Notes: generated by a model not told the origin, from the letters alone. A DNA stretch of 64,000 nt from an uncultured Gammaproteobacteria bacterium (GCA_964566925.1 CAZMIZ010000001.1:135248-199247), one strand, 5' to 3'. Counted from the stretch's first letter, positions 4,686-53,063 are shown. Numbers and translations are program-made.

Positions 4686-6122
4686 ATGGCCAAAAAATAC
4701 TTTATTACCACCACCACCCCATACGTTAATGCTGATCCCCATATCGGCTTTGCATTGGAGATCATTCAAGCCGATGTTTTGGCAAGGCATCACCGCCTCC
4801 TAGGTGAAGATGTTTTTTTTAATACCGGCACTGACGAACACGGTCTAAAAATCTATCGAAGGGCGGTTGAGGAAGGAAAAGAGCCGCAAAAATATGTTGA
4901 TGAATATGCCAAAAAATTTGATGATCTTAAAAAGGCTCTAAACCTAAGCTATAACAACTTTATTAGAACCACTGACCGGCACCATGTGGAGGCAGCCAAA
5001 GAATTCTGGCAAAGGTGCTTTAAGAATGGTGATATCTACAAAGACAAGCAAAAGATTAAATACTGCGTTGGCTGTGAATTGGAAAAAACAGAATCCGAAC
5101 TGGTAAACAACGTCTGTCCAATCCATCCCAATAAAAAATTAGAAATCATTGAGGAAGAAAACTATTTTTTTCGCTTCTCAAAATACCAAAAACCCCTTCT
5201 AGATCTTTACCAGAAAAATCCTGAGTTTGTGGTTCCTTCGACCAAGCTAAAAGAGATAAAAAGCTTCGTTTCCCGAGGCCTAAAAGATTTTAGCATTTCC
5301 AGGTTAAAGACCAAGCTACCATGGGGCGTTCCGGTTCCCGACGATCCGAACCACGTAATGTATGTTTGGTTTGATGCTTTAATTAATTATATTTCTGCTA
5401 TTGGCTGGCCCAAAAACGAAAAAGAATTTCGAAAATGGTGGCCTGGAGTTCAGGTCGCTGGAAAAGACAACCTACGGCAACAGTCAGCCATGTGGCAAGC
5501 AATGCTCATGTCCGCAGGATTACCTAATTCAAAACAAATATTTATCCATGGTTTTATCACCTCTAATGGACAGAAAATGAGTAAAAGCCTGGGTAACGTG
5601 ATTGATCCTTTTGAGGTGGTTAAAAAATACGGCACCGATCCTGTCCGCTATTATCTTTTACGCGAAATTCCTGCTTACCGAGGCGGTGATTTTTCAGTTC
5701 AGCGATTTAAAGAAATCTACAATGCAGATCTTGCCAACGGTTTAGGCAATTTAGTCGCTCGAGTGGCCAAACTGTGCGAAAAATCAGGCTTTGATTTCGA
5801 GGCGATAACGCCTAAAATTCTAAAAACCAATCGGGTTTCTAAGTACCTCGATGAGTTTAAATTTGATAGAGCACTAAGGTGGCTCTGGAGCGATGTAAAA
5901 TGGGGGTTAAGGTGGTTAGACCGAAGAATAAATGATGAGAAGCCATGGGAAATCAAGGATGAAAAACTCCTGGAACTCCGGTTAAATCTATATGTCTTAA
6001 ATATCCGAAAAATTGCCGAACTACTTAAACCTTTCCTTCCAGAAACATCGGAAAAAATCGAAAAACAATTTGTTGGGCCAAAAATCAAGGCCGAGAAGCC
6101 CTTGTTCCCCAGACTGAAATAA
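4686..6122 (+). CDS. metG: methionyl-tRNA synthetase (short form)
   Basis: HIGH-region PYVNADPHIGF, zinc knuckle CVGCELEK...CPIH, and KMSKS (NGQKMSKSLGN). Confidence 0.9.
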   Translation: MAKKYFITTTTPYVNADPHIGFALEIIQADVLARHHRLLGEDVFFNTGTDEHGLKIYRRAVEEGKEPQKYVDEYAKKFDDLKKALNLSYNNFIRTTDRHHVEAAKEFWQRCFKNGDIYKDKQKIKYCVGCELEKTESELVNNVCPIHPNKKLEIIEEENYFFRFSKYQKPLLDLYQKNPEFVVPSTKLKEIKSFVSRGLKDFSISRLKTKLPWGVPVPDDPNHVMYVWFDALINYISAIGWPKNEKEFRKWWPGVQVAGKDNLRQQSAMWQAMLMSAGLPNSKQIFIHGFITSNGQKMSKSLGNVIDPFEVVKKYGTDPVRYYLLREIPAYRGGDFSVQRFKEIYNADLANGLGNLVARVAKLCEKSGFDFEAITPKILKTNRVSKYLDEFKFDRALRWLWSDVKWGLRWLDRRINDEKPWEIKDEKLLELRLNLYVLNIRKIAELLKPFLPETSEKIEKQFVGPKIKAEKPLFPRLK

Positions 6123-6123: not shown

Positions 6124-7608
6124 ATGCGCAATTTTATTCTTAAACACGAAAAAAAGATTCATCGTTTCCTGGAAATTCTGCCAGGGACCGTTTCCTGGAG
6201 CCTGATTTTGTTCTTTTTAGTTGGGGGTTTTATTATCCCGGTCACCATTGCCTACATTGTCCTGATCTTCGATGTCTTCTGGGTCTATAAATCCATTACC
6301 ATTGCCTTTATGGCGGTGGTTTCTTATCTGCGAATCAAAGCCTCGGAGAAAATGGATTGGCTGGGAGAGGTAAAATTCTTCCCAGAATGGAAAAAGATTC
6401 ATCACGTCGTTATTGTTCTCACTTACAAAGAGCCGCTTCATACTCTAGAGCGAACCCTAACTGCCATCGCCAATCAAGATTTCCCTTTAAAGCAGATCAG
6501 TGTCGTTTTGGCCACTGAAGATCGAGACAAAGAGGCTCCAGCCAAAGCCAGGGCTTTAAGAGAAAAGTTTGGTAAACAATTCGGCCATTTTTTCGTTACC
6601 CGCCATGTTTTAAAAAAAGGCGAAGTCGCCGGTAAATCTTCTAACGAACGCCATGCCGGCATTTGGGTTGAGAAAAAACTAGTCAATGAAAAAGGCTACA
6701 ACCTTAATTTTATGACCGTTACTAGCTGTGACGCCGACCATGTTTATCACCCGAAGCACTTTTCCTATCTCACTTATAAGTTTTTAGATAGCCCTCACCG
6801 CTATGAACGTTTTTGGCAACCAGCAGTGATGTTTTACAACAATTTTTGGAACCTACCGGCGCTAACCCGGGTCGCCAACACCTTTGCCACCATTTGGAAT
6901 ACGGCTCTTTTAGTGCGCACCGACCGCTTAATTAGCTGTCAAAATTATTCTGCCTCTTTTAAGATGATTCACGAGGCTGGCTATTGGGATCCAGATGTCA
7001 TCCCCGAAGACTACCGGATCTTTTTTAAGTGTTTTTATAAAACCGGCGGTAAGGTCGAAGTAGAACCGATTTATCTCCCCCTTCATGCTGACGCCGCCGA
7101 ATCAACCGGCACCTGGAAAACCCTGGTTAACCAATATGAACAATTCAAGCGTTGGGCCTGGGGGATTTCTGATGACCCCTATATCATTAAGCATTATTTT
7201 CTTTCACCTTATATTTCCTTTTGGAATAAAACCATCCGCATCTTAAGGATCGTTGAAGATCATTTTCTTTGGCCAGTCAACTGGTTTTTCATTACTTTGG
7301 GAGTGACCATTCCTTCAATTCTAAACCCTAATTTCTCTAGAACGGTAATTGGCTATACTTTGCCCCGAATGTCCTCTTTGATTTTAACTTTCTGTTTACT
7401 CTTTTTGGCGGTGATTCTGATTGTTGATGCCAAACAGCGGCCACCAAGACCCAAGCATGTTCCCAGATGGCGGGCCGCTTTAATTCCTTTAGAATTTATC
7501 CTGATGCCTGTGGCGGGCTTTTTATTCACCGCTCTGCCGGGCCTTGATGCCCATACCAGGTTGATGTTGGGCAAATACCTGGAATATCGAGTCACCGAAA
7601 AAGTTTAG
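6124..7608 (+). CDS. GT2-family membrane glycosyltransferase
   Basis: N-terminal TM helices, a GT-A core (VVIVLTYKEP ... SCDADH) and C-terminal TM helices. Resembles processive or polyprenyl-phosphate-sugar synthase GT2 enzymes. Confidence 0.7.
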   Translation: MRNFILKHEKKIHRFLEILPGTVSWSLILFFLVGGFIIPVTIAYIVLIFDVFWVYKSITIAFMAVVSYLRIKASEKMDWLGEVKFFPEWKKIHHVVIVLTYKEPLHTLERTLTAIANQDFPLKQISVVLATEDRDKEAPAKARALREKFGKQFGHFFVTRHVLKKGEVAGKSSNERHAGIWVEKKLVNEKGYNLNFMTVTSCDADHVYHPKHFSYLTYKFLDSPHRYERFWQPAVMFYNNFWNLPALTRVANTFATIWNTALLVRTDRLISCQNYSASFKMIHEAGYWDPDVIPEDYRIFFKCFYKTGGKVEVEPIYLPLHADAAESTGTWKTLVNQYEQFKRWAWGISDDPYIIKHYFLSPYISFWNKTIRILRIVEDHFLWPVNWFFITLGVTIPSILNPNFSRTVIGYTLPRMSSLILTFCLLFLAVILIVDAKQRPPRPKHVPRWRAALIPLEFILMPVAGFLFTALPGLDAHTRLMLGKYLEYRVTEKV

Positions 7609-7647
7609 GCTTGCTTAAAATAACCCCTCTTGATAAAGTAAAAATAG

Positions 7648-8940
7648 ATGAATCAATTTACGGTCAGCCTTTGGGGTGATGAGGCCTGGGCAGCCACTTT
7701 AGCGGTTAAGCCAATTGTCGATATCGTTCGGATTGTGGCTCGAGACACTTCGCCACCCCTATACTACCTTTGCCTTCACGCCTGGATGAAGTTTTTCGGT
7801 ACTTCGGAGGTGGCTATCCGCAGTCTCTCTTTCCTTTTCTTTTTAGGCACGGCAATTACCGCCTTCTTGATCGCCAAACATCTTTGGGACAAAAAAACAG
7901 CCCTTTTGGCTGCCTTTTTAACTTTTACTAATCCCTTTCTTTTTATCTATGCTTTTGAAGGCCGGATGTATGCCATCCTAGCCTTGACTTCCACCCTCTC
8001 TCTTTATTTTTTTCTTAAAAAGAATCGGCCTGGTTTTATCCTGGCCACTACAGCCGCTCTTTACAGCCATCATTTCTCAATTTTTGTGGTTATCTGGGAA
8101 GTAATCTGGATCCTGATGGAAAACTGGGGCCAGCCGGTTAAAAAAATTATTAAAAGCCTTGCTGATTTTTTCATTATTGGCCTTCTCTATCTTCCCTGGC
8201 TTTATCCTCTTTATTACCAAACTTCGCTTGTTGGCAGTGGTTTTTGGCTAGGGAAACCAACCATCTCAGTTCTCATAGGCACTATCCGAAAATTCTTGGT
8301 TGGACCAGAAGAAGAAATTAATCGCTATTTAGCTTATTTTTCGATTATTGCCGTTTTGATCTTAAGACAATGGTTAAAAGACAAAAAGAATTCTACCTTT
8401 CTTATTGGTTGGTTTTTAACTCCCCTCGCTTTAACCTTCTTAATTTCTCAGTTTTTCCAGCCCATCTTTTATGACCGCTACATGCTGATGGCCATTCCCG
8501 CCAGCTCGCTCCTAATTGCCTCTTTGAGAAGAAAACCCTCTGTCATCTTTATTATTTTGATCATCTTTCTATTAGGCTTCGTTGATTTCCAATACTTCAA
8601 TCATCCTACCAAAAGGCCTTTCCGGGAGTTGGCTAGTTTTATCAAGGCCGAAGCCCCAGATTTAACTTTGATCAACTACAATGCTGCCGCCCATCATCTT
8701 TGGGAAAGTAAATATTATGGTCTTGAGGCGCCAATTTACGCACCCGAACCCCTCCCCTTTTACACAGGGATTGCCTTAATGGAAGAGGGCGACGTGATTG
8801 AAAAGCTTCCTGATGAAGAAAAAATTGGCGCCATTAGTAGCGCTCCACCTAACGAAGTTCAAATCACCGGATTGGAGATTGAAAAGAGTAAACAATTCGA
8901 AAGTCTTTGGTTTTTATGGCTAAAAAGGAAAACAATCTAA
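7648..8940 (+). CDS. GT-C fold glycosyltransferase (ArnT/PMT-like, GT39/GT83)
   Basis: N-terminal WGDEAW (DE motif), PPLYYL, and FEGRMYA in loop 1. About ten TM helices. Confidence 0.7.
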   Translation: MNQFTVSLWGDEAWAATLAVKPIVDIVRIVARDTSPPLYYLCLHAWMKFFGTSEVAIRSLSFLFFLGTAITAFLIAKHLWDKKTALLAAFLTFTNPFLFIYAFEGRMYAILALTSTLSLYFFLKKNRPGFILATTAALYSHHFSIFVVIWEVIWILMENWGQPVKKIIKSLADFFIIGLLYLPWLYPLYYQTSLVGSGFWLGKPTISVLIGTIRKFLVGPEEEINRYLAYFSIIAVLILRQWLKDKKNSTFLIGWFLTPLALTFLISQFFQPIFYDRYMLMAIPASSLLIASLRRKPSVIFIILIIFLLGFVDFQYFNHPTKRPFRELASFIKAEAPDLTLINYNAAAHHLWESKYYGLEAPIYAPEPLPFYTGIALMEEGDVIEKLPDEEKIGAISSAPPNEVQITGLEIEKSKQFESLWFLWLKRKTI

Positions 8941-10382
8941 AAAAGTTTCTAAAATCTTATTGGCTTGTTTTTGTCTTTATCCTGGTTATTTTTCTCCGCC
9001 TGCCTTCATTGTTCGAACCTTTTACCTATGGTGATGAAGGAATTTATCTGACTTTAGGTCAGTCTTGGCGAAAAGGAGCCGTTTTCTATCGAGACATTCA
9101 CGATAACAAGCCACCCCTTTTATACCTCTTGGCTGGAGTTGCCTACAGCTTTGCTAATTATCGATTAATCCTTTTTTTCTGGAGCCTAATCACCGCCTAT
9201 TTCTTCTCCAAACTCGGCCGTTTCCTTTTTAAGAAAAACGGTTGGGCTGTTTTTTCTTCCACCCTTATTTTTGCTATTCTTAGCAGCATCCGCCTTTTTG
9301 AAGGTACTATTGCTAACGCCGAAAATTTTTTAATCGGAACCTCGATTCTTGGTTTCTATTTCCTCTTGACCGCTAAAAAGAATTATCAATTTTTTTTCGC
9401 CGGTCTTCTTTTTTCTCTTTCGACTCTTTTCAAAATCCCGGCGGCTTTTGATTTCGCTGCCGCCGTTACCTTTGGATTTTTGCTATTTATGCAAAACCGA
9501 AGAAATTATTCGCTATTCATTATTCGCTATTCATTATTCGCCCTGGGCTTTTTCCTCCCTATTCTCCTCTCGCTTCTCTACTATGCCTCTCAAAACGCTC
9601 TTAGCCAGTATTTAACCGCTGCTTTTTTTCAAAATATTCCTTACCTTGCCTCCTGGGCACCAGACAAGCCGCAGGCTGGAGGACTACCCATCCCTCTTCT
9701 TGGCCGAGCTCTTGGCATCTTGATTGTCTTTAGCCTTCTTTTTTCTTTAAGGAAAAGGCTTTCCTCTGCCGCCAAACTAACCACTCTCTGGTTTTCTTTT
9801 TCCCTTTTTGCCGCCCTTCTTTCCAGTCGCCCTTACCCTCATTATCTTCTCCAAACAATCCCGCCTTTAACTCTTTCTCTTGGTTTAATTTTGGCCAAAG
9901 AGAAGGAAAAAATTATTTCCCTCACAATGGTCGTCGTTCTCGTCTTCAGCATGGTCATTTTCAATTATTGGCATTACCCAACCGTTTCTTATCTTCAGAA
10001 CTTCTATTCGTTTGCTCTCAACTTAAAAACAAGAGATGACTATTTTGCTTATTTTGGTGGCCATACCCAAGATCTTTATCAGGTCGCCGCCTATCTTAAA
10101 ACCCACACCGAGGCCGAGGAGGAAATCTTTATTTGGAGTAACCATCCTTCGATTTACCCCCTCGCGGAGCGCTCTCCGGTTGGTCGCTATGCCACTGCCT
10201 ATCACATTATTGACTTTAACGGCTACGAGGAGACGATTAAAGCCCTCCAATCCTCTCTTCCTCGATATATTGTCCGCTCTCTGGAAGAAAAAAGAGCCTT
10301 TCCCTCTCTTGAGGCTCTGTTGGCCAACCAATACCTAAAAATAGAGACTGTCGGCCAGTTTGAGATTTACCGTCATCTTTGA
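8907..10382 (+). CDS. GT-C fold glycosyltransferase (ArnT/PMT-like), second paralogue
   Basis: TYGDEGIY ... NKPPLLYLL. Polytopic. Overlaps the previous gene by 34 nt. Confidence 0.7.
   Translation: MVFMAKKENNLKKFLKSYWLVFVFILVIFLRLPSLFEPFTYGDEGIYLTLGQSWRKGAVFYRDIHDNKPPLLYLLAGVAYSFANYRLILFFWSLITAYFFSKLGRFLFKKNGWAVFSSTLIFAILSSIRLFEGTIANAENFLIGTSILGFYFLLTAKKNYQFFFAGLLFSLSTLFKIPAAFDFAAAVTFGFLLFMQNRRNYSLFIIRYSLFALGFFLPILLSLLYYASQNALSQYLTAAFFQNIPYLASWAPDKPQAGGLPIPLLGRALGILIVFSLLFSLRKRLSSAAKLTTLWFSFSLFAALLSSRPYPHYLLQTIPPLTLSLGLILAKEKEKIISLTMVVVLVFSMVIFNYWHYPTVSYLQNFYSFALNLKTRDDYFAYFGGHTQDLYQVAAYLKTHTEAEEEIFIWSNHPSIYPLAERSPVGRYATAYHIIDFNGYEETIKALQSSLPRYIVRSLEEKRAFPSLEALLANQYLKIETVGQFEIYRHL
9507..9541 (+). 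repeat. 7-bp periodic tandem repeat (TATTCGC/TATTCAT x5) inside the GT-C gene
   Basis: Read directly from the sequence. Encodes the YSLFIIRYSLFAL peptide repeat. Confidence 0.8.
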
Positions 10383-10792
10383 ACCTAGGCTGTGGTATAA
10401 TTCGACTGATGGGAACCTTCCTTGACCAATTGACTGAAGAAAAAGGCAAGTTTAAGCTCTTAAGAGAGGACCGCCACCTCAATTTAAGCATCAGATTAAA
10501 TTTAATCTTTTTGGCTATCAGTTTTTTCTTTTTGATGCTTTTTTGGCAAAGACTGCCTCCCCGGGTGCCTCTTTTTTTCAGCCATCCCTGGGGAGAAAGC
10601 CAGCTGATTCCGCCCATCGGACTTTTTCTCCTACCTCTCCTCTGTCTTTTGGTTTGGGTCATCAACTTCTGTCTTCTCCTGAAAACTTTAAAAGAGGAAA
10701 AAATTCTTGCTTGGATTTTAGCGGGGACCAGCTTAACTTTTACTTTCCTTTGCCTTGTCGCTTTGTATCAGATTATTAGGCTTATTCTCTAA
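10379..10792 (+). CDS. small hydrophobic membrane protein (hypothetical)
   Basis: 137-aa ORF with three or four TM helices between the GT-C and WecA-like genes. Coding status uncertain. Confidence 0.35.
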   Translation: MNLGCGIIRLMGTFLDQLTEEKGKFKLLREDRHLNLSIRLNLIFLAISFFFLMLFWQRLPPRVPLFFSHPWGESQLIPPIGLFLLPLLCLLVWVINFCLLLKTLKEEKILAWILAGTSLTFTFLCLVALYQIIRLIL

Positions 10793-10799
10793 AACTAAA

Positions 10800-11906
10800 G
10801 TGATTTCTCTCGTCTTAATCAAAAAACTTATTGGTGAGCCTTTTCTGGCCGCCTTTATTATTTCCCTCCTGTCGACGCCTTTAACGATTAAGCTTGCCCG
10901 CCGTTTTCGCTTGGTTGACGACCCCGCCAACCGGCGTCATCCCGCCCATACCCATCAGGGAATTATTCCCCGAGCCGGAGGTCTCCCCATCTTTTTAAGC
11001 CTCACCTTTACCAGTCTTCTTTTCCTTCCTTTAGATAAACACTTAAAAGGGGTTCTCTTCGGAGCGGCTCTCCTGATCATTATCGGCCTTCTTGATGATC
11101 GCTTTGATTTAAACCCTTATCTTAGGCTTTTCACCTGTCTTCTCGCTGCCGGCATGGTGGTCGTCGCCGGCATTGGCATTGCTTTTATTAATAATCCCTT
11201 TAACGGCATCATTCATCTTGATCAACCTCAAATTTATTTTGAATTTTTAGGAAAAACTAGAAGCATTTGGGTGCTGGCTAGCTTTTTCGCCTTATTTTGG
11301 ATTGTCTGGATGGCTAATATCGTCAACTGGGCTAAGGGTTTCGACGGTCAGTTGCCGGGAATTGTCACCATCGCCGCCTTAACCATTGCCCTTTTGTCTT
11401 TCCGCTTTTCCGCTGACGTCACCCAATGGCCAGTGACCATTTTGGCCGCGATTACGGCTGGGGCTTATTTTGGTTTTTTACCTTTCAATTTTTATCCTCA
11501 AAAGATTATGCCTGGCTACGGCGGGGGAACCTTGGCCGGCTTCATGCTGGCTGTTCTTGCCATTCTTTCGACCACCAAAATTGGCACCGCCATCGTGGTT
11601 TTAGGGGTGCCGGTGATCGACGCGATTTATTCAATCGCCCGTCGACTGGCCGCCGGCCGCTCACCAGTTTGGGGCGACCGAGGCCATCTCCATCACAAAC
11701 TTTTAGACGAATGGCACTGGGGTAAACGTCGAACGGCCATTTTTTACTGGCTAGTGACCGCCCTTCTGGGAGCAGTGGCTTTAAGTTTGAATAGTCGCCA
11801 AAAATTTTATACAATCATTATGATCGCGGTAGCGATCGGAGGAGTTCTTTTGTGGTTAAACTTCTTTACAACCTGGCGCTCGCAGCCCGACCAAGACAGA
11901 CAATAA
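10800..11906 (+). CDS. polyprenyl-phosphate HexNAc-1-phosphate transferase (WecA/MraY family, GT4)
   Basis: RLVDDPANRRHPAHTHQGIIPRAGGLPIF and NIVNWAKGFDGQLPG are WecA/MraY-family motifs. The track ORF starts at 10755. An in-frame GTG at 10800 just after the upstream stop is the more likely start. Confidence 0.7.
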   Translation: MISLVLIKKLIGEPFLAAFIISLLSTPLTIKLARRFRLVDDPANRRHPAHTHQGIIPRAGGLPIFLSLTFTSLLFLPLDKHLKGVLFGAALLIIIGLLDDRFDLNPYLRLFTCLLAAGMVVVAGIGIAFINNPFNGIIHLDQPQIYFEFLGKTRSIWVLASFFALFWIVWMANIVNWAKGFDGQLPGIVTIAALTIALLSFRFSADVTQWPVTILAAITAGAYFGFLPFNFYPQKIMPGYGGGTLAGFMLAVLAILSTTKIGTAIVVLGVPVIDAIYSIARRLAAGRSPVWGDRGHLHHKLLDEWHWGKRRTAIFYWLVTALLGAVALSLNSRQKFYTIIMIAVAIGGVLLWLNFFTTWRSQPDQDRQ

Positions 11907-12784
11907 AAAATCTGGTTCTTTTTGCTGCTTTGATTTTCTCGGGCAACCTGCTGGTCACCGAAAAATTTTTAACCGTCGGTAAAGGTTTCCTTATTTTTTC
12001 TTTGCTCGCCTCCTCTAAATATATTTTTAATGATATTATTGATCTCCCTCTAGATCGACACCATCCCATCAAAAAGCACCGGCCAATTGCCACCGGTTCT
12101 CTGCCTATCCCCATTGCTCTTTTTGCTGTGATTGTTGGCGTTTTCACCAGCCTTTACTTGGCTGCCCAACTTTCTTTTTTCTTTTTTTTGACTTGCCTTG
12201 CCTATTTTCTGCTTCAACTAATTTACACTTTCTTTTTAAAGAACTTAGTTATTTTAGACGTTTTAGCCATTGCCGGCGGTTTTATCTTGCGGGTTTACGC
12301 CGGCGCTTTTGCGATCGATGTTCACCTTTCGGTTTGGTTCCTTCTTTGCCTTATTTCCCTTTCTCTTTTCCTGGCCGTAGGCAAGCGGCGAGCGGAATTA
12401 ACCATTCTTGCCTCCAGAAAAGCTCTTCACCCCAGAAAAACCCTGGCCTTTTATAAACCGGCTTTACTTGATTCTTATCTAGCCATGTTCGGCAATGCCG
12501 CCTGGCTTTCTTATGCTCTTTTTACCTTCTTCACCCCTAGCCCCCCAGTTGCCCAAAGATTTCCTTTCTGGGATCGGCTGCCCCTAACTCTGGCCGGGGT
12601 TAATAAATGGCTGATGTTAACCATTCCCATGGTTATTTTTGCCATTATGCGCTATATGCAAATCATCTATACTGGCTCAAAAGCCGAAGCTCCAGAAAAA
12701 GTCCTTTTGTCAGACAAATCACTCTTGACGGTAATCACTGTCTGGGGCATCATGGTAATTTTAATTATCTATGGCGTTAGATAA
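11852..12784 (+). CDS. UbiA-family prenyltransferase (decaprenyl-phosphate phosphoribosyltransferase-like)
   Basis: NDIIDLPLDRHHPIKKHRPIATG is the UbiA NDxxDxxxD signature. Eight or nine TM helices. N-terminal ARPRQTIKN. Confidence 0.7.
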   Translation: MVKLLYNLALAARPRQTIKNLVLFAALIFSGNLLVTEKFLTVGKGFLIFSLLASSKYIFNDIIDLPLDRHHPIKKHRPIATGSLPIPIALFAVIVGVFTSLYLAAQLSFFFFLTCLAYFLLQLIYTFFLKNLVILDVLAIAGGFILRVYAGAFAIDVHLSVWFLLCLISLSLFLAVGKRRAELTILASRKALHPRKTLAFYKPALLDSYLAMFGNAAWLSYALFTFFTPSPPVAQRFPFWDRLPLTLAGVNKWLMLTIPMVIFAIMRYMQIIYTGSKAEAPEKVLLSDKSLLTVITVWGIMVILIIYGVR

Positions 12785-13595
12785 AAACAAAAAGACTAGT
12801 CTGGCTGATATCAAAGCTCTCTATCAACCACCAGCCAATTCTCATAAAGGTCAAAACGGAAAACTAATCATCATCGGTGGCTCCCACCTTTTCCATGGGG
12901 CTTCGCTTTGGGCCTTGAAGGTGGCCAGTCGGATCGTGGACATGGTCTATTATTCTTCGATTCCCGAGAATCTTAAATTAACCCAAAAACTGAAAGCTAA
13001 TCTTTATGATTTTATTGGTGTGCCTAGAGAAGAGATTGAAGCCTATATCCAGGAGGCAGAAGCAATTCTTATTGGTCCGGGTTTAACCCGGGAAAAAGGA
13101 ACCAAGAGTTTAACAGAAAAGTTGATCAAAAAATTTCCTAAAAAGCAATGGGTGATTGATGCCGGCAGCCTCCAAATGATGTCTCAAAAATTGATTCCTA
13201 AAAACTCAATCCTTTTACCCCACAGAAAGGAATTCAAGCGGCTTTTTGGGGTTAAAGCTAATCCAGAAAACGCCGCCAAAATGGCTCAGAGATATGGTTG
13301 CGTCATTCTCCTGAAAGGCCCAACCGATTACATCTGTTCTTCTTCTAAATGTAAAATCAATCTCACTGGCAATGAAGGGATGACCAAAGGGGGAACCGGT
13401 GATGTTTTGGCGGGACTGGTGGCTGCTTTTGCTTGTAAAAACGATCCTTTTTTAGCCGCTTGCGCGGGGGCCTATATTAATGGCCTGGCTGGTGACCGAC
13501 TAAAAAAACGGGTGGGCATTTACTACAACGCCTCTGATTTAGCCGAAGAAATTCCAGCAACTTTAAAATGGTGCTTAGGTAATAAGAAGAACTAA
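12771..13595 (+). CDS. nnrD: ADP-dependent NAD(P)H-hydrate dehydratase (YjeF C-terminal domain)
   Basis: GKLIIIGGS ... ILIGPGL ... ILLKGPTDYI ... GNEGMTKGGTGDVLAGLVAAF. Confidence 0.75.
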   Translation: MALDKNKKTSLADIKALYQPPANSHKGQNGKLIIIGGSHLFHGASLWALKVASRIVDMVYYSSIPENLKLTQKLKANLYDFIGVPREEIEAYIQEAEAILIGPGLTREKGTKSLTEKLIKKFPKKQWVIDAGSLQMMSQKLIPKNSILLPHRKEFKRLFGVKANPENAAKMAQRYGCVILLKGPTDYICSSSKCKINLTGNEGMTKGGTGDVLAGLVAAFACKNDPFLAACAGAYINGLAGDRLKKRVGIYYNASDLAEEIPATLKWCLGNKKN

Positions 13596-13599: not shown

Positions 13600-14521
13600 C
13601 TACTCTACTAATTCTGAATAAACCCCGGAAACCCAACCTTCTTCTCCCTCTTCATATTCAATTTTATGCCAGCCACTTTCAGTTTTACCAAGATAAGGAT
13701 AGGTTTCGCCGGGATTAACCTTCGCTAGTTCAGTGGATTCATCATCAGTTGACGGTTCTTCTCTAACTCGCAACCAACCAGTAGGCGTCTCTTTGATGCG
13801 CACATAGGGCTTGTCAACCGAGGCAGTCGGGGTTGCCTCAGCCTTAGTTGTTGGTGTCGGGGTGGTTTCTTCCTCTTCAGCCTCTTCTTCCTCTTCTTTC
13901 TTTTCTGCGCTGGGTGTTGCCTCTTCCTCTTCCGTTCCTTCTTCCTCTTTAGCCAATTGAACTGCGACCGTCAATTTATAACCAGTAACCGTGTGCGCCG
14001 AAATAGATTTTTCTTGATAACCAGGAGCAGAAACAACCACCTGATAATCGCCAGCTGACAGATCTTCAATTAGAACCGGGGCAAACCCTTTTGGTTCTCC
14101 ATCAACTTTCACTACCGCCTGATCAGGAATAGAGATGACCTCTAAAGAAGCACTGTCTTTTTTGGCAATTTTTTCTAGAGATAATGTTTCGCCCGAAGAA
14201 GAGTCTTCGCTTGACCCAAGTGTTCGATTAATCACCGTTAATATATTAGCCACTAAAGTGACTTTACTTTCCCAGGAAACCAGCTGATCAGTGGTAGCTT
14301 CAGGGACGAGCTTAACCGTGTGTTCTCCAGGAGTGAGTTGATCATCAAAATAAGGTGTAATCCCCACACTGTTGCCATCCAGAAAAACCGTAGCCGTTGG
14401 GGTTGAGGAAATCTGAAGGGCGGCCGGGCCGCCTTGGTTAAGAAACTTTCCCCGAAAAATAAAAACGCCCAGAGCCAGGGCGAGAACAGCAACAATGGCA
14501 ATCAGCCAAGATTTCTTCATC
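13600..14521 (-). CDS. membrane-anchored PEGA-domain protein with acidic linker and C-terminal SH3b domain
   Basis: MKKSW start (the track ORF extends to 14601), one TM helix, PEGA-like ATVFLDGNSVGITPY, a Glu/Thr-rich low-complexity stretch, and a C-terminal GWLRVREEPS ... GWHKIEY SH3b-like domain. Confidence 0.55.
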
Positions 14522-14617
14522 AGGGATGAATGATACCATAAATTGTCAAAAAGGACAAGCATCTTATAGGGTAAAGGTTTTGCTTTTTTGAGGCCAGGCA
14601 TGATAAAATCAGAGTAA

Positions 14618-14689
14618 GGCCTGGTACTCGAGTAGCCCAGAGAGCTGTCTGCAAAACAGCTAACGCGGGTGCAAATCCCGCCCAGGCCT
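14618..14689 (+). tRNA. tRNA-Cys (anticodon GCA), candidate
   Basis: Hand-folded cloverleaf. 7-bp acceptor stem GGCCTGG/CCAGGCC. Anticodon stem GCTGT/ACAGC with loop CTGCAAA (U33, GCA at 34-36, A37). T arm GCGGG-TGCAAAT-CCCGC, 72 nt with discriminator T. Unusual G at position 55. No encoded CCA. Confidence 0.6.
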
Positions 14690-14706
14690 CAAAAAACTGA
14701 ACGTGC

Positions 14707-14735
14707 TTGACTTTTTGAGCCTAATTTGGTATACT
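14707..14735 (+). promoter_or_regulatory. sigma70-like promoter TTGACT-N17-TATACT upstream of the M23 peptidase gene
   Basis: Near-consensus hexamers with ideal spacing, 60 nt upstream of the ATG. Confidence 0.5.
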
Positions 14736-14743
14736 CTAGTCAA

Positions 14744-14763
14744 CCTATTGCAATTGCAATAGG
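14744..14763 (+). promoter_or_regulatory. perfect 20-bp palindrome CCTATTGCAATTGCAATAGG just downstream of the -10
   Basis: Exact self-complementarity read from the sequence. The position suggests an operator. Confidence 0.5.
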
Positions 14764-14797
14764 ATTTTTTATTTAGCGGGCTAAATTAACCCGCCAA

Positions 14798-15493
14798 ATG
14801 ACTACTTTAACCCTTTCGCTAGGAAGAAACCAAGTGTTGGTTTCTTTCGGCCGCAAATCGGGGCGACCCAAACGCACTCTTGCGGTTAAATTAGGCGAAA
14901 TCATTTCCTTTACTAAGAAGCTGGCCACCTCACGACGCTATGCTGGTCATCCGGTCAGTCGGGTTTTGCGTCGGGTTTTTGAGTTCCAAAAAATCAGGGG
15001 AATTCTAGGCTTAAACTTGGCTTTTATTGCTTTATTCTCTGGGGTTTTAATTCCCCCTATTTCGGCTCTGGATACTCAACCCGAAGAAGAAATCGTGGCT
15101 CTTTCTCCTGGTGAAACCCAGGTAATTACCCTGGAAGGGATTCAATCGCCTTTAAAGACTTTTAATGTCAGCCAGGGTTATAGTTTTTTTCACCCAGCCA
15201 TTGACCTTGATGAAGAGTTAGGCGCCGAAATTTACCCGATTATGAAGGGTCAAGTTGAAGATGTCTCCGAAGGCCGGTTTGGCTATGGAAAATCCATTCT
15301 AATTAACCATGGCAATAATCTGAAATCCTTTTATGCCCACCTCAACCAAATCAATGTTTACGAAGGTGAAGAAGTGAATATGGAGACTGTGATTGGGACT
15401 GTGGGTCGGACTGGTTGGGCAACTGGTACCCACCTTCACTTAGAGATCCGAGATAACGGCAAAAACATTAACCCTTTAACCTTGTTGCGCTGA
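14798..15493 (+). CDS. M23-family (LytM-like) peptidoglycan endopeptidase, membrane anchored
   Basis: HPAIDLD ... GWATGTHLHLEI, the classic HxxxD/HxH M23 motifs. N-terminal TM helix. Confidence 0.8.
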   Translation: MTTLTLSLGRNQVLVSFGRKSGRPKRTLAVKLGEIISFTKKLATSRRYAGHPVSRVLRRVFEFQKIRGILGLNLAFIALFSGVLIPPISALDTQPEEEIVALSPGETQVITLEGIQSPLKTFNVSQGYSFFHPAIDLDEELGAEIYPIMKGQVEDVSEGRFGYGKSILINHGNNLKSFYAHLNQINVYEGEEVNMETVIGTVGRTGWATGTHLHLEIRDNGKNINPLTLLR

Positions 15494-23172: not shown

Positions 23173-24933
23173 ATTTCGGCTGAAAGAATTGCCTTTTTAG
23201 TCCTCATTTTAGTTCTTGCTTTTTTATTTTTAGTCTTTCTCTCCTATCACCTTGCTTATTGGCAAAAAATTTATCCGGGAATAACCGTGCTGAAGGAACC
23301 AATAGGCAACCAAACTCTGGGAAAGGCAACAGAAAAAATTGAAGGGCAAATTGCCAAGATTGAATTAAAAACTCTTCCCCTGATTTACCAAGAACAGGCA
23401 TGGTCAGTGGATCTCCATCAACTTGATTTTAGCTATAACGCCACGGCCACGGCTCAGAAAGCTTACCAGGTCGGCCGAGCCGGCTCCTTAACTCAGAATC
23501 TCAAAGCCAAAACCGAGGCTTGGTTTAAGGGTATTAATCTCAATTTAAATTATCAACTCAGTCAAAATCTCCTAGAAAACCGAGTGGCCACTATCGCCGG
23601 AGAACTTTTTATCCCGGCGATCGAGCCAACAATTCAAGTCTTTGAGGCGACCCCAGCTGGCGCCTTAAGCCGAATCGCGATTGAAGCCGGCAAAGAGGGC
23701 CGAGAGCTAGATCAACAGAGACTTCTGTTAATTATTGATCAACGACTCTCGACCGCCGATTTTGATCCTCTTGAGCTACCAGTCATTATTCTCTCACCGA
23801 GTTTGACTGATGATCAAATCGCCAGAACGAAAACCAGGGCCGAAAAATTTTTAGACAAGAAATTAGTTTTTTCTCAAGATGAAGATCAATGGGAATTAGA
23901 TGAACAGGAATTGATCGGTTTCCTTTCTTTCACTGATCAATATGAAGAGGCAAAAATCGCCAGTTACACGGCTACTCTCGCCCAAAATATTGATCGTCCT
24001 CCTCAAAACGCTGCTTTCCAATTTGAAGGCGGTCGGGTCACTCAATTCCAGCCCGCCAAAGAGGGATTAACTTTAAAACAAGAAGAGACCATTAAGTCAA
24101 TTATCACCGCGCTTGAGAAAATTGAGGCCGGGGAAGGAAATCAGCCGATGATTAATCTTTCGGTTATTACCGCCTCTCCGGAGGTGACCGTCGAAGAAAT
24201 TAATGACCTAGGCATCAAGGAACTTTTAGGCCGGGGTGTTTCTTATTTTCGAGGTTCAATCACTTCCAGAATTCATAATATTCAGCTCGCTTCTTCCCGG
24301 TTCAATGGTCTTTTAATCCCCCCAGGAGAAACCTTTTCTTTTAACCAAGCCCTGGGTGAGGTCTCGCCGGCCACTGGCTTTCAACAGGCCTATATCATTA
24401 AAGAGGGCCGGACAATTCTTGGGGATGGCGGTGGGGTTTGTCAGGTCTCCACTACCTTTTTCCGAGCCGCTTTAGACGCTGGTTTACCGATTATCGAACG
24501 CCAGGCTCATGCCTATCGGGTGGCTTACTACGAACAAGGCTTTTCGCCTGGGCTGGATGCCACCGTTTGGGAACCAAGCCCAGATCTAAAAATTAAAAAT
24601 GATACTCCCGCCCACATTTTAGTCCAAGCTTATGCAAATGTTGGTGCCCGGAGTTTGACTTTTGAGTTTTATGGGACTTCAGATGGCCGCCAAGCCACGA
24701 TTGGTAAGTCCCGGATTTGGGATCAGGTTCCTCCCCCACCTGATCTCTATCAGGATGATCCTACCTTGCCAGCTGGCCAAATTAAGCAGATTGATTGGAA
24801 AGCTTGGGGTGCCAAAGTGGCTTTTGATTGGAAAGTGGTTCGCGGCGATGAAGTCCTTCAAGATCGAACTTTCTATTCAAACTACCGCCCCTGGCAAGCC
24901 GTCTTTTTACGAGGCACTGGTCCAGCTCAATAA
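23110..24933 (+). CDS. VanW-family protein
   Basis: LGDGGGVCQVSTTFFRAAL is the VanW signature. N-terminal TM helix. Confidence 0.75.
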   Translation: MNKTLQELQKQLRKFTKKLPQISAERIAFLVLILVLAFLFLVFLSYHLAYWQKIYPGITVLKEPIGNQTLGKATEKIEGQIAKIELKTLPLIYQEQAWSVDLHQLDFSYNATATAQKAYQVGRAGSLTQNLKAKTEAWFKGINLNLNYQLSQNLLENRVATIAGELFIPAIEPTIQVFEATPAGALSRIAIEAGKEGRELDQQRLLLIIDQRLSTADFDPLELPVIILSPSLTDDQIARTKTRAEKFLDKKLVFSQDEDQWELDEQELIGFLSFTDQYEEAKIASYTATLAQNIDRPPQNAAFQFEGGRVTQFQPAKEGLTLKQEETIKSIITALEKIEAGEGNQPMINLSVITASPEVTVEEINDLGIKELLGRGVSYFRGSITSRIHNIQLASSRFNGLLIPPGETFSFNQALGEVSPATGFQQAYIIKEGRTILGDGGGVCQVSTTFFRAALDAGLPIIERQAHAYRVAYYEQGFSPGLDATVWEPSPDLKIKNDTPAHILVQAYANVGARSLTFEFYGTSDGRQATIGKSRIWDQVPPPPDLYQDDPTLPAGQIKQIDWKAWGAKVAFDWKVVRGDEVLQDRTFYSNYRPWQAVFLRGTGPAQ

Positions 24934-24940
24934 AGGGAAA

Positions 24941-26353
24941 ATGAAAAACCAAAACCTGAACCGCCTCATTCTTGGTTTTCTGTTGGTGGGACTTTTTTTG
25001 CTCTTCTTCCTTCCCCCCACTGATCCGGATTTAGGCTGGCATTTGCGTTGTGGTCAGCAATTTTGGGAACAAGGAAAACTTTGTGCCCAAAATACTTTCA
25101 GCGTTCTCATGGCCGACTATTACTGGCCTGACGCCCGAACTTTTTATCAAGGTTCAATCTTTCCTTTTTATAAAATCTTTAATCTTTTCGGTTTAAGCAT
25201 GGTCAATAGTTTTTTGCTCTTGGCGACTTTCGTTCTCTGGCTTTCTTTATCAGGGAAAAGGGAAATTAAGGCGACACTTATGCCTTTAATTATTTTTCTT
25301 TCTTGGTCAGTTTTAGGCTTTGGTATTCGCAACCAGCTCATCAGCCTCTTTTTCCTCTTCGCCTTAATAAAAACCATTGAATTAACGGAAAAAAACCAAA
25401 AATGGGCTTTTCTCTTCCCTCTGATAATGTTTTTTTGGGCTAACAGTCACGGCGGGTTTGTGTTGGGAGTTTTTTTACTCTCAATCTTTCTCTTTGAAAA
25501 AACCCTCCGGCTCTTAACCAGGCCTCACCAGGACAAAAACTATCTCTTTTTTCTCATACCTGTTCTTCTTAGTCTTGGGGCGACTCTCTTAAACCCTTTT
25601 GGGATTAAAATTTATTTTGAAGGTTGGCGACACCTCATGATTGTCCCTCTTTCTCAGTTGATTGCTGAGTGGGTGCCCCCCCAACCTTGGCTCCAAATCA
25701 CGATTTTAATCTTCCTGGGATTGACTCTTGGGGTTCTTTACCAAAACCGAAAACAGCCTCTAACTCTCCTTAAAACCATCACCTTGATTTTCTTGGCTCT
25801 TTTAGCTTTAAGAGCCAGGCGAGATCTAGCCTTTTTCTTCTTTTTGGCGGGTTATCTTTTCTCCTCATTAAAAATTAAAACAAAAATATTTCCATCTTTG
25901 GCTCTACTTGCTGCCGCCTTTATTTTCGTTTTAGGTTTTTTCTTCCAGCTTCCAAGAACAATGATGATCGATGGGAGCTGGGATCAATTTTGTCAAATCA
26001 GATATGCCTGTGAGGGCGTCTCCTTTTTAAAAGAGCGGCCGGAAAAGGGCAATATTTTTAACACCTATGAACAAGGAGGTTTTTTAATCTGGCAGCTACC
26101 AGAATATAAAGTTTTTATTGACGGCCGAATGCCCGCCTGGCCTCATCCTTCGGGCAAAAGTCCCTATACTATCTACTTAGAAACTTTACAGACTCAACCG
26201 GGCTGGCAAGAAACCCTTCAGGATTATGATATCAATTGGCTTTTCATTGGTCCGGGGACTTTCATGGATCTGAAAATCCGAGATGATCCTCAAAGCCTTG
26301 GCTGGCAAGAAGTTTTTCGGGGAAAACGAGCCGTAATTTATCAAAAAATATAA
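24941..26353 (+). CDS. polytopic membrane protein (hypothetical; possibly glycosyltransferase-like)
   Basis: The track ORF starts at 24662 in a different frame and overlaps VanW. MKNQNLNRL at 24941 is the plausible start. About 12 TM helices. Confidence 0.5.
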   Translation: MKNQNLNRLILGFLLVGLFLLFFLPPTDPDLGWHLRCGQQFWEQGKLCAQNTFSVLMADYYWPDARTFYQGSIFPFYKIFNLFGLSMVNSFLLLATFVLWLSLSGKREIKATLMPLIIFLSWSVLGFGIRNQLISLFFLFALIKTIELTEKNQKWAFLFPLIMFFWANSHGGFVLGVFLLSIFLFEKTLRLLTRPHQDKNYLFFLIPVLLSLGATLLNPFGIKIYFEGWRHLMIVPLSQLIAEWVPPQPWLQITILIFLGLTLGVLYQNRKQPLTLLKTITLIFLALLALRARRDLAFFFFLAGYLFSSLKIKTKIFPSLALLAAAFIFVLGFFFQLPRTMMIDGSWDQFCQIRYACEGVSFLKERPEKGNIFNTYEQGGFLIWQLPEYKVFIDGRMPAWPHPSGKSPYTIYLETLQTQPGWQETLQDYDINWLFIGPGTFMDLKIRDDPQSLGWQEVFRGKRAVIYQKI

Positions 26354-32296: not shown

Positions 32297-33547
32297 CTAT
32301 TTAATTTCCATCTCGACGGTACCTTTAAAATTAATCTTCCATTGGCTAATTTTCGGATTAGTCCAATCCCCTTTCTCCCCAGCCACCCTTTTTTCGAAAA
32401 AAATCTCTTCGTTCTCTGCTTTGATTAGAGGATAATCTGTTTCTTCATCGGCTTGCTTCAGGAGCCAATATTTCTCCGCACTAGCATCAAAAGCAGCTAA
32501 ACTAACCCCTTCACCTCCTTCATATGGTCTTTCCGGCCCCACCTTTTCTGGTGCATTAAGGACTAACCGATGGCCATCAAGCCAAATCACTTTGCCATAT
32601 TCAGAAAGGTTGGCAATTGTTCTCTCGTCTTCTAAGTTAACAATCTCTAATTCTCCCAACAAACCAATCCCCTGGCTAATTGCCAAATATTGATTATTAA
32701 AAGAAGAGTAAAGTCGGCGAGCCGGGCCGCCATCTGGCCACTGGTATTCCCTTAAAACTCGCTCCTGGCCTTCTTTATCAACCAGAATTACTTTGGTAAC
32801 ATCGCCTTCTTTGTCGATTCTAAAAGAGATTTGTTTTTCATCGGATGTTAAAAACTTAAAAGTGGAAAGCATGAGATCAAAAATTTCTGCATATCCTTCG
32901 TTGTTTAAGTCGTCCTTATATTCCAAAACAATATGGTTAACCTCGCCTTCTTCTGGGAACACAATTAGCTCATAAAGGTTCGTATAAACTTCCTTGGTCA
33001 CCGCTAATCCCCCAACCGTTATAGATTCCGTTCCGGAAGGTTCTACTTGGGGGACTTTCGGAATAGCATTCCCTGAATAGATGCTCAGACTATTAAGATC
33101 TTTTTCAAAATTAACAATTCCTTGAGGCGTCTGTTCGTCGAGGTGTAAAATCCAATCACTGGGATGTTTGATTAAATAGCCATATTCAGAATTAACGTAG
33201 GTCTGCCAACTGGCGGTCGGATTCGGGGTCACGGTGGCTAACAATCCTGGAGTTGGAGTCAGATGAGGCTGAACGGAGGACCGAAACCAAATGCGGCCCC
33301 ACCAATAAGCGCGGGTGGCCACATTAACTAGAGCCCAAACAACTAGCAGGCCAATTAAGCCGAAAAAAATCTTTTGATGATGAAATTTAATTTGGCGGAT
33401 AATTTTACCAACTAAGCCTCTTTCCTCGATTTCCACTTCCGGAGGGACAGTTTGTTCATTAAGATTAGAAGTTTCCTGATGGGACGGTGACTCAGGCTTT
33501 TCTTCGGCCATCAAGCCAATTTTACTTTTCTTTTCCTGCCTTTGCAA
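32297..33547 (-). CDS. hypothetical membrane-anchored extracytoplasmic protein
   Basis: 416-aa ORF with an N-terminal TM helix. No family recognised. Confidence 0.45.
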   Translation of the reverse strand: MQRQEKKSKIGLMAEEKPESPSHQETSNLNEQTVPPEVEIEERGLVGKIIRQIKFHHQKIFFGLIGLLVVWALVNVATRAYWWGRIWFRSSVQPHLTPTPGLLATVTPNPTASWQTYVNSEYGYLIKHPSDWILHLDEQTPQGIVNFEKDLNSLSIYSGNAIPKVPQVEPSGTESITVGGLAVTKEVYTNLYELIVFPEEGEVNHIVLEYKDDLNNEGYAEIFDLMLSTFKFLTSDEKQISFRIDKEGDVTKVILVDKEGQERVLREYQWPDGGPARRLYSSFNNQYLAISQGIGLLGELEIVNLEDERTIANLSEYGKVIWLDGHRLVLNAPEKVGPERPYEGGEGVSLAAFDASAEKYWLLKQADEETDYPLIKAENEEIFFEKRVAGEKGDWTNPKISQWKINFKGTVEMEIK

Positions 33548-34316
33548 CCTTCTTTTCGGGGGATGGTTTCTTCGGTCTCTTTTCCTCAGGCGAGGTTTCA
33601 GCTTCTTTTTTCTCAGCTGGTTTTTCTTCTTTTTCCTCTGGTTTTGTCTCTTCGGCAGCCTCTTCTGGAGGAGCCTCTTCTGAGGGGGCTACTTCTTCCT
33701 CTTCGGCCGGAGGTTCAACTTTAACTAAAATCTGTTTGGCAGCGGTTAAGATCTCCACTCCCTCTGGAACTTTAAGATCACCGACAGTAACGGCATCATC
33801 AATTTCCTTCAGTCCGGTAACGTTAACCTCAAATTTATCAGGGAGCTCGGTTGGCAGGGCTTCTACTTCAACCTCAACTAAAGGTTGAATCAAGATTCCG
33901 CCTTTTTCTTTAACCGCGGCTGATTCGCCAGTAATCTCCACTGGAACCTCAGTCGTTACTTTTTGTTTAAGGTCAACCTGATAAAAATCAGCGTGGAGGG
34001 GTTGATCCGTCACCGGATCAAGCTGAACATTATGAATCAGAACTGGCCGAGCCTTAGTTTCACCCTTAAGATCTAAATTGACAATCCCTGTCTCCCCTGC
34101 CTCTTGATAAACCGGCAAAAAAGTTTTTAGATCAAGCTGAACCGCACAGGATTTTACCTTCTTACCATAAATATTGGCTGGCAAAATCTCTTTTCGGCGG
34201 AGCTGATTCACCTTTCGGCCGGCCACCTTCCGTTTTTCTGCTTTTAGCTTGGGTGTTTCTTTTTTTACTTTAGCCACAATGTTTCGTATCTTATCAGCTT
34301 CACTTAGCAAAATCAA
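33522..34316 (-). CDS. rplY: ribosomal protein L25 / general stress protein Ctc with Lys/Glu-rich C-terminal tail
   Basis: RKVNQLRRKEILPANIYGKK ... HADFYQVD is L25/Ctc. The start may be the GTG at 34277. The C-terminal KPEEKEEK tail is low complexity. Confidence 0.75.
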   Translation of the reverse strand: MILLSEADKIRNIVAKVKKETPKLKAEKRKVAGRKVNQLRRKEILPANIYGKKVKSCAVQLDLKTFLPVYQEAGETGIVNLDLKGETKARPVLIHNVQLDPVTDQPLHADFYQVDLKQKVTTEVPVEITGESAAVKEKGGILIQPLVEVEVEALPTELPDKFEVNVTGLKEIDDAVTVGDLKVPEGVEILTAAKQILVKVEPPAEEEEVAPSEEAPPEEAAEETKPEEKEEKPAEKKEAETSPEEKRPKKPSPEKKVAKAGKEK

Positions 34317-41892: not shown

Positions 41893-41893
41893 T

Positions 41894-46517: not shown

Positions 46518-46532
46518 TCCCTTTTCCTTTTG

Positions 46533-53062: not shown

Positions 53063-53063
53063 A

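Follow-up and report, generated by a model that had tools for sequence, protein, structure and literature searches.

A conserved Microgenomates gene cluster that may direct envelope glycosylation from a lipid-linked pentofuranose donor

Does the run of membrane-enzyme genes at positions 6124-12784 of a 64,000-nt stretch of DNA recorded under an uncultured gammaproteobacterium (GCA_964566925.1, CAZMIZ010000001.1:135248-199247; the whole stretch is referred to below as the window) encode the synthesis and use of a lipid-linked pentose and, if so, of which pentose? A first-pass annotation had recognized here a family 2 glycosyltransferase (GT2), two glycosyltransferases of the GT-C superfamily, a WecA-like initiator and a UbiA-family enzyme, and had proposed that together they form a polyprenyl-phospho-pentose or -hexose donor pathway feeding envelope glycosylation. 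Open reading frames (ORFs) occupy exactly this interval and all five gene identifications proved correct, but a sixth gene, encoding a small protein with three transmembrane (TM) helices (10379/10409-10792), had been overlooked. The interpretation preferred here, to which a probability of roughly 0.55 is attached, is that the cluster is a conserved envelope-glycosylation operon of Microgenomates bacteria organized around a lipid-linked pentofuranose donor, and that it represents a variant of known systems that combine a polyprenyl-phosphate phosphoribosyltransferase with GT-C enzymes.

The last gene of the cluster (11852-12784, + strand, GTG start) encodes a 310-aa member of the UbiA superfamily that is very probably a polyprenyl-phosphate phosphoribosyltransferase dependent on 5-phosphoribosyl pyrophosphate (PRPP) and of the Rv3806c type (PPPRS below). 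This identification is based on its scores against models of decaprenyl-phosphate phosphoribosyltransferase (DPPRS), on Rv3806c being its sole relative of solved structure and on the retention of the PRPP contacts, subfamily placement having been made by hidden Markov model subfamily scores together with residue mapping. The protein matches Pfam UbiA at 57.3 bits (cut-off 34.2) and its hydropathy profile has eight hydrophobic peaks over the 310 residues, in keeping with the multi-TM fold of the superfamily. Against the NCBIfam DPPRS models NF008977 and NF008978 it scores 204.4 bits (cut-off 234) and 201.9 bits (cut-off 207), respectively, some 170 bits more than on any aromatic or heme prenyltransferase model, and its score on PRK08238, a HAD-UbiA fusion model, is 160 bits. 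When all PDB sequences were searched, the only matches at E<0.01 were the Mycobacterium tuberculosis Rv3806c entries 8J8J and 8J8K (best E=6e-34). A database protein, P0001, is 100% identical to PPPRS over 310 aa.

The cryo-EM structure of Rv3806c assigns Mg2+ and ribose contacts to N73, D77 and Q135, 5′-phosphate contacts to K28, Y70 and Y157, and pyrophosphate contacts to R22, K87, R90, K143 and Y138, with K208 nearby, and the phosphoribose-binding sites are not conserved across the wider UbiA superfamily (PMC10994848). In a pairwise alignment, Rv3806c residues R22, K28, Y70, N73, D77 and K87 correspond to R13, K19, Y57, N60, D64 and K74 of PPPRS, and R90, Q135, Y138, K143, Y157 and K208 to R77, Q122, Y125, K130, F144 and K196. 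All 12 PRPP-contact residues are thus kept, 11 of them identical and one (F144) as a Tyr to Phe change, which has also been reported for Y157 in some mycobacteria (PMC10994848). Most of these positions are invariant among 20 homologues from bacteria of the Candidate Phyla Radiation (CPR); the Mg2+/pyrophosphate site (N60, D64, R13, K74, R77, K130, and Y125) is invariant or nearly so in this set, and the phosphoribose-specific contacts K19, Y57, Q122, F144, and K196 are present in PPPRS.

Membership of the UbiA superfamily could equally be taken to indicate an aromatic or quinone prenyltransferase of the MenA, UbiA or heme O synthase type, and some sources do name homologues ‘4-hydroxybenzoate polyprenyltransferase’; other database annotations already call certain of the CPR proteins decaprenyl-phosphate phosphoribosyltransferase. 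However, PPPRS stays at or below 35 bits on every NCBIfam prenyltransferase, heme O synthase or 4-hydroxybenzoate model (25 bits on ubiA_proteo, whose cut-off is 275, and 28 bits on heme O synthase), the MenA model was undetected in the same scan, no UbiA-type PDB structure other than Rv3806c was matched, and the PRPP-specific residues are all kept. The first-pass annotation had likened the protein to the Rv3806c-type enzyme, a likeness that would be undone by a position in a quinone clade with conserved aromatic-substrate-binding residues; it is instead borne out by DPPRS scores of about 200 bits and by contacts for PRPP, ribose and 5′-phosphate. The prenyltransferase alternative is effectively refuted, its probability being close to nil.

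The presumed users of the lipid-linked product are encoded by two overlapping genes on the + strand, GT-C1 (7648-8940, 430 aa) and GT-C2 (8916-10382 from the ATG at 8916, 488 aa; the ORF opens at a TTG at 8907, giving 491 aa), and both are almost certainly members of the GT-C superfamily. GT-C1 is PMT_2/ArnT-like, matching Pfam PMT_2 at 37.4 bits (cut-off 26.1). The window sequence of GT-C2 itself has no Pfam or NCBIfam match, but 11 of 30 homologues match PMT_2 and an AlphaFold2 model built from 30 homologues (pLDDT 89.5, pTM 0.88) has its best Foldseek matches in the PDB with STT3, ArnT, AglB, DPY19, and PglB (E=3e-7 to 2e-4), followed by weaker matches to PimE, ALG12, Pmt4, and AftA. An invariant YGDEG motif follows TM helix 1, with D40 and E41 invariant, and the protein ends in an alpha/beta domain. 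The assignment of GT-C2 therefore draws on its predicted fold and D40/E41, and that of GT-C1 on its PMT_2 match and the alignment of its GDE motif. Sequence-only and profile-only searches of the PDB with GT2, GT-C1, and GT-C2 returned nothing meaningful. A database protein, P0121, is 100% identical to GT-C2 over 488 aa.

GT-C1 is, by alignment, a paralogue of GT-C2 without TM helix 1, since its hhalign alignment to the GT-C2 profile (E=4.9e-5, 373 columns, GDE motif included) places residue 9 at column 39. Its catalytic GDE motif lies at residues 10-12, with no preceding TM helix, which is unusual for a GT-C enzyme. An in-frame N-terminal extension is impossible, because the 39-nt spacer between GT2 and GT-C1 (7606-7650) contains three stop codons; the GT-C1 ATG lies 39 nt past the GT2 stop in the same frame, and in other genomes the GT-C1 homologues are equally long.

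The first gene of the cluster, GT2 (6124-7608, + strand, 494 aa), encodes a membrane-embedded protein that matches Pfam Glyco_trans_2_3 (E=2.9e-9; 37.5 bits, cut-off 27) and has a GT-A domain between N-terminal and C-terminal TM helices. It carries the D, DxD, (T)ED and QxxRW motifs of processive synthases, of which DxD (D203/D205), ED (E295/D296), and QxxRW (Q340-F-K-R-W344) are invariant in 25 homologues, and its AlphaFold2 model (pLDDT 79.8) has top Foldseek matches in the PDB with the hyaluronan synthases of Chlorella and Xenopus, BcsA, chitin synthase and PcManGT, a minimal cellulose-synthase-like protein (E=1e-10 to 1e-6). The model thus indicates a membrane-integrated, synthase-type GT2 and not a polyprenyl-P-hexose synthase of the GtrB/DPM1 type. 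The enzyme may be processive, although the same motifs occur in some non-processive lipid glycosyltransferases.

The WecA-like gene (10755-11906, + strand, 383 aa; start codon uncertain) gives a clear family-level match, and its product can be assigned by sequence to the polyprenyl-phosphate N-acetylhexosamine-1-phosphate transferase (PNPT) superfamily. It scores 88 bits on Pfam Glycos_transf_4 (cut-off 27), 97.9 bits on the NCBIfam WecA model, which is far below the cut-off of 326, and 52.8 bits on that of MraY (cut-off 192); its PDB match is MraY (E=1.6e-12), and the motifs DDxxD, NxxNxxxGxDG and HLHH are visible.

Between GT-C2 and the WecA-like gene lies the gene for the small 3-TM protein (10409-10792 from the ATG at 10409, + strand, 127 aa; the ORF opens at a TTG at 10379), which is conserved in this position. 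Members of its family have a core of about 100-130 aa, three predicted TM helices and the conserved loop LPPxxPLFYSRPWGEeQL, and their only Pfam signal is a weak one to DUF1648, seen for 11 of the 36 members scanned with an E of 4e-4 at best. An identity as a GtrA, SMR or MATE flippase was considered and is unsupported, none of these families being matched by any of the 36 members. An exhaustive HMMER search of a global protein library detected 854 representative clusters at E<=1e-3, and all 150 homologues listed are stand-alone proteins of 75-171 aa without fusions; apparent fusions to the WecA-like enzyme or PPPRS, at loci with over-long ORFs, are artefacts of upstream ORF extension. As the sole unassigned membrane protein of the operon, the small protein is a speculative candidate for a flippase or an accessory subunit.

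The six ORFs all lie on the + strand and are separated by no more than 39 nt or overlap, the overlaps suggesting translational coupling. All six products are integral membrane proteins, five of which come from families acting on glycan substrates that are either linked to polyprenyl phosphate or associated with the membrane. A methionyl-tRNA synthetase (MetRS) gene (4686-6122) is located directly upstream of the cluster and an NAD(P)HX dehydratase gene (12771-13595) follows it. The host is assigned by sequence to the Microgenomates group of the CPR, and the nearest homologues of every cluster gene are found in metagenome-assembled genomes (MAGs) of Shapiro-, Blackburn-, Beckwith-, Woese-, and Amesbacteria. 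Many public MAG records that bear the titles ‘uncultured Gammaproteobacteria’, ‘Pseudomonadales’, ‘Nevskiaceae’ or ‘Candidatus Bathyarchaeia’ (loci L001, L003, L007-L010, L019, and others, one being the 615-kb complete chromosome OZ246397.1) show a Microgenomates gene order, and their taxonomic labels are probably wrong.

A scan of one genome per species detected 498 loci with this PPPRS subfamily, of which the best 80 (L001-L080) were examined over 10 kb on either side of the PPPRS gene. Gene presence was counted in the 61 of these loci that have at least 6.5 kb of upstream flank, with GT-C2 scored within 7.5 kb upstream of PPPRS. The WecA-like gene was found at 60, GT-C2 and GT2 at 55 each, and GT-C1, an optional member of the cluster, at 19. 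The recurrent order is a Trp-repressor-like gene, MetRS, a TatD-like gene (at some loci), GT2, GT-C1 (where present), GT-C2, the small protein, the WecA-like gene and PPPRS, followed by a PEGA/SH3 protein gene on the opposite strand, an M23 peptidase gene and GroEL/ES. Because this order recurs in Microgenomates-type genomes whose proteins have median identities of only 37-57% to those of the window, the clustering is not due to chance, and the cluster looks like a core locus of the whole lineage, not a side-chain module that varies with serotype. Complete genomes of Microgenomates in which it is found include CP011210.1, CP066693.1 and OZ246397.1. The small protein, WecA-like and PPPRS genes form the tightest unit, a small + strand ORF being found immediately upstream of the WecA-like gene at 73 of the 80 loci, and GT2 and GT-C2 are adjacent to each other at most loci. 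An ORF of 255-280 aa that is frequent between MetRS and GT2 in relatives and absent from this window was considered as a DprE2-like short-chain dehydrogenase/reductase (SDR) or a phosphatase; judged by eye from its N-terminal motif, it looks like a TatD-type hydrolase.

Which sugar the donor carries depends in part on the enzymes that accompany PPPRS. No FAD_binding_4/DprE1, PAP2, HAD-phosphatase, GtrA, SMR or PRPP-synthetase domain was detected in the ORFs of the window. A DprE1 query, verified beforehand against the PDB, had no tblastn or phmmer match in the window and the 80 related loci (1.34 Mb), and motif scans of these loci found SDR-like ORFs at two and a PAP2 motif at one, that is, sporadically, with neither an SDR nor a PAP2 protein conserved. 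The analogy to decaprenylphosphoryl-arabinose (DPA) drawn in the first-pass annotation, under which DprE1/DprE2-like epimerases and PRPP-synthesis genes were to be sought, is unsupported: no DprE1 homologue and no conserved SDR or PAP2 gene was found in the window or the 80 loci. With no linked epimerase, the default sugar becomes ribofuranose (Ribf) and not arabinofuranose (Araf), and Ribf is held to be somewhat the likelier of the two. A synthase for a polyprenyl-P-hexose (GtrB/DPM1/ArnC type) was likewise absent from the cluster, and as nothing else in it would supply another donor, a pentose is the most economical donor for the GT-C enzymes; that part of the earlier proposal stands, shorn of its arabinose.

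The pathway envisaged would begin on the cytoplasmic face of the membrane, where PPPRS, judged by its conserved contacts, would transfer 5-phosphoribose from PRPP to polyprenyl phosphate. A phosphatase would then remove the 5′-phosphate to yield polyprenyl-P-Ribf, which would be flipped to the outer face, speculatively by the small 3-TM protein, and GT-C2, joined by GT-C1 where present, would place the pentofuranose on an extracytoplasmic acceptor. That PPPRS feeds the GT-C enzymes is considered probable. The likeliest acceptor would be a glycan that the WecA-like enzyme primes on polyprenyl-PP-HexNAc and that GT2 extends or exports; only genetic linkage suggests that these two enzymes are coupled to the pentose branch, and the identity of the acceptor is proposed tentatively.

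Several observations weigh against this interpretation. Both DPPRS scores fall just under the curated equivalog cut-offs, and the GT-C enzymes are structurally closest to STT3 and ArnT and not to arabinofuranosyltransferases. The trio of small protein, WecA-like and PPPRS genes is kept without GT-C2 or GT2 at loci such as L004, L042, L054, L069, and L078, and unrelated neighbours (MetRS, TatD, the PEGA/SH3 protein, the M23 peptidase and GroES/EL) are nearly as syntenic as the cluster, so that the conserved order is only moderate-to-weak evidence of functional coupling. A 5′-phosphatase, whether a HAD phosphoribose-phosphatase domain or a PAP2 protein, was found neither in the cluster nor in the window, the 310 aa of PPPRS leaving no extra domain, and the same holds for the known flippase families GtrA, SMR, and MATE; a Wzx-like MOP protein encoded 25 kb away is unlinked to the cluster. 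Epimerases, a phosphatase or a PRPP synthetase could be encoded beyond the 64-kb window.

With the donor pathway left as proposed, the GT-C enzymes could instead be protein O-glycosyltransferases of the PMT/TfpW type acting on pilins, S-layer or other surface proteins, and the WecA-like enzyme and GT2 would then serve a separate polymer. By sequence, both GT-C proteins are neighbours of PMT_2/PMT, the structural matches include STT3, PglB, and Pmt, some loci have the WecA-PPPRS core without GT-C2 or GT2, and a DPPRS orthologue has been proposed to feed GT-C-mediated arabinosylation of pilin in Pseudomonas aeruginosa (PMC11127046). However, the cluster has no linked pilin or S-layer gene, and GT2 and GT-C2 stand side by side at most loci. 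A protein acceptor is regarded as unlikely, if the most credible of the alternatives. Less probable is an explanation by general stasis of CPR genomes, in which the genes would be neighbours without sharing a pathway: the GT-C enzymes would draw on a polyprenyl-P-hexose synthesized elsewhere, GT2 would produce a separate exopolysaccharide, some other process would consume the PPPRS product, and the WecA-like enzyme would prime a Wzx/Wzy-type glycan encoded at 34.3-40.2 kb. The equal synteny of the housekeeping genes MetRS, TatD, and GroES/EL fits this explanation, as do the failure to identify a phosphatase or a flippase in the cluster or window and the presence, 25 kb away, of a Wzx-like and a Wzy_C protein without a nearby initiating transferase. 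It accounts poorly for six membrane products of which five belong to polyprenyl-phosphate or membrane glycan families, for overlapping genes that suggest translational coupling and for the lack of an alternative donor synthase in the window; furthermore, PPPRS enzymes have no known use beyond supplying GT-C enzymes.

A true Araf pathway, as in Corynebacteriales or in Pseudomonas pilin glycosylation, in which DprE1/DprE2-type epimerases encoded elsewhere would convert polyprenyl-P-ribose to polyprenyl-P-arabinose before GT-C transfer, appears comparably improbable. PPPRS is the first committed enzyme of the DPA pathway and Rv3806c its sole solved relative, known systems need only the addition of DprE1/E2 homologues to make Araf (PMC11127046), and the window covers only about a fifth of the source contig of roughly 298 kb. 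Set against this are the searches described above (DprE1 undetected in 1.34 Mb, no FAD_binding_4 domain in the window ORFs, SDR-like ORFs at 2 of 80 loci) and the fact that in characterized systems the epimerases are clustered with PPPRS and GT-C genes (PMC11127046).

The closest precedent for a Ribf-based operon is the three-component system of Kelly et al. (2024; PMC11127046), which comprises a PPPRS fused to a HAD phosphatase, a MATE flippase and a GT-C enzyme of family GT136. In the Citrobacter youngae O1/O2 loci these are ORF15 (PPPRS-PRP), ORF14 (MATE flippase) and ORF12 (GT136), and such systems add Ribf, or xylofuranose or Araf when an epimerase is added; they were described in 2024 as widespread, with no mention of CPR (PMC11127046). 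As in those systems, a UbiA-type, PRPP-dependent PPPRS is genetically linked to a GT-C enzyme in the same operon (55 of 61 loci), the donor without an epimerase would be polyprenyl-P-Ribf, and the essential N/D motif residues have equivalents in N60, D61, D64, and D68. In contrast to them, the present cluster has neither a fused HAD phosphoribose-phosphatase domain nor a separate phosphatase, it has a conserved DUF1648-like 3-TM protein and no MATE, GtrA or SMR flippase, there are two paralogous PMT_2-like GT-C enzymes, one of them without TM1, a WecA-like initiator and a synthase-like GT2 share the operon, and the locus, which appears to be lineage-wide, lies near the replication origin.

The mycobacterial arabinogalactan locus likewise contains a GT2 polymerase, GT-C enzymes and the UbiA-like Rv3806c, the full DPA/arabinogalactan set being Rv3806c, Rv3807c, DprE1/DprE2, Rv3789, the AftA and Emb GT-C enzymes, the GT2 GlfT2, and WecA. 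The cluster resembles a compact form of that system, with a PNPT initiator, a GT2 polymerase, GT-C enzymes and a PPPRS whose closest solved homologue is Rv3806c and whose PRPP contacts are all conserved. It differs from it in that DprE1/DprE2, an Rv3807c-type PAP2 protein and a GtrA-like Rv3789 were not detected here, in GT-C enzymes that have ArnT and STT3 as closer relatives than AftA or Emb (for which Foldseek gives E=3e-3 or weaker), in a GT2 that is cellulose/hyaluronan-synthase-like with QxxRW, whereas GlfT2 is a soluble membrane-associated enzyme, and in a host that is a small-genome CPR bacterium.

Two further comparisons concern parts of the scheme. In the GtrA/GtrB/Gtr(type) and CsbB/GtcA/YfhO hexose systems, as is proposed here, a lipid-phosphate sugar is synthesized in the cytoplasm and, once flipped, serves a GT-C enzyme on the outer face; their donor synthase, however, is a small GT2 that uses UDP-hexose, whereas here it would be a UbiA-type PRPP enzyme, and the only GT2 of the cluster has synthase architecture, unlike GtrB-type enzymes. 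WecA-primed, synthase-dependent glycan pathways, exemplified by WbbE/WbbF of Salmonella O:54, also combine a WecA-family initiator with a membrane-embedded, HasA/BcsA-like GT2 bearing QxxRW, a pairing suggested here by linkage only, but an adaptor glycosyltransferase was not seen in this cluster.

Other genes of the window were surveyed alongside the cluster. Downstream of it (13600-15493) are a protein with PEGA and SH3_3 domains on the opposite strand, tRNA-Cys (14618-14690) and an M23 peptidase; the PEGA protein is kept downstream at 70 and the M23 peptidase at 49 of the 80 related loci, and these two may be cell-wall associated partners or may simply reflect conserved synteny. A second glycan-related set occupies 34300-40213 on the - strand. 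One of its products, of 964 aa, fuses an NAD-dependent epimerase/dehydratase to DUF4012, and the others are RNase H-like, a Wzx-like flippase (Polysacc_synt) and a Wzy_C/O-antigen-ligase-like protein. As this set has no initiating transferase nearby, the WecA-like enzyme encoded at 10755 could serve it.

The genes yidC, a KH/R3H-domain protein gene (KhpA-B KH and R3H Pfam domains) and rnpA on the - strand, followed by dnaA and dnaN on the + strand, lie at 41107-45439, and this replication-origin region coincides with the cumulative GC-skew minimum at approximately 42-44 kb. It is followed on the - strand (45441-54998) by a type IV secretion-like block. Its products are a 1227-aa protein that has an M23 peptidase domain at its end, a VirB4/TraG-like ATPase (50252-52177), a member of the PrgI family that also contains a CarboxypepD_reg domain, and two four-helix-bundle proteins of the 23S_rRNA_IVP type. 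A UvrD/Rep-type helicase gene (2-2266, - strand) is incomplete at the left window end, and a 155-aa ORF that overlaps it (2209-2676) is probably spurious or mis-started. ORFs of 416-1102 aa without a Pfam match (E<=1e-3) were detected at 55147-58455 (+), 59643-61034 (-), 61044-63851 (-), 24662-26353 (+), and 32297-33547 (-); that at 24662-26353 shares about 270 nt with the VanW-domain gene before it, and its TTG start is therefore probably incorrect.

The lineage is what is new in this locus, and not the enzymes. A full-text literature search returned nothing on lipid-linked glycan pathways in CPR bacteria and no paper that connects this enzyme or pathway with CPR, Patescibacteria or Microgenomates, in agreement with the view in the first-pass annotation that such pathways are not described in this lineage. 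As a concept, by contrast, the combination of PPPRS, flippase and GT-C enzyme in pentofuranose systems was already known (PMC11127046); a known kind of system is extended here to CPR, with known enzyme families and no new principle.

The three-component pentofuranose concept would thereby reach a very different lineage, and the small-protein family, with its 854 representative clusters, is flagged as a candidate for the missing flippase or accessory factor. To our knowledge, CPR envelope chemistry is essentially uncharacterized, and the operon provides a concrete, testable hypothesis for one CPR surface polymer or glycoprotein modification, with enzymes that can be assayed heterologously and without CPR culture. 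More speculatively, and on balance doubtfully, Microgenomates and perhaps other CPR bacteria may possess a core wall glycopolymer of arabinogalactan-like logic that is primed by the WecA-like enzyme, made by GT2 and decorated or extended with Ribf by the GT-C enzymes, with the hitherto unrecognized DUF1648-like 3-TM protein as flippase or coupling subunit. CPR cells are thought to live attached to hosts and, if such a glycopolymer exists, it would be the first defined CPR envelope polymer and a possible mediator of host attachment.

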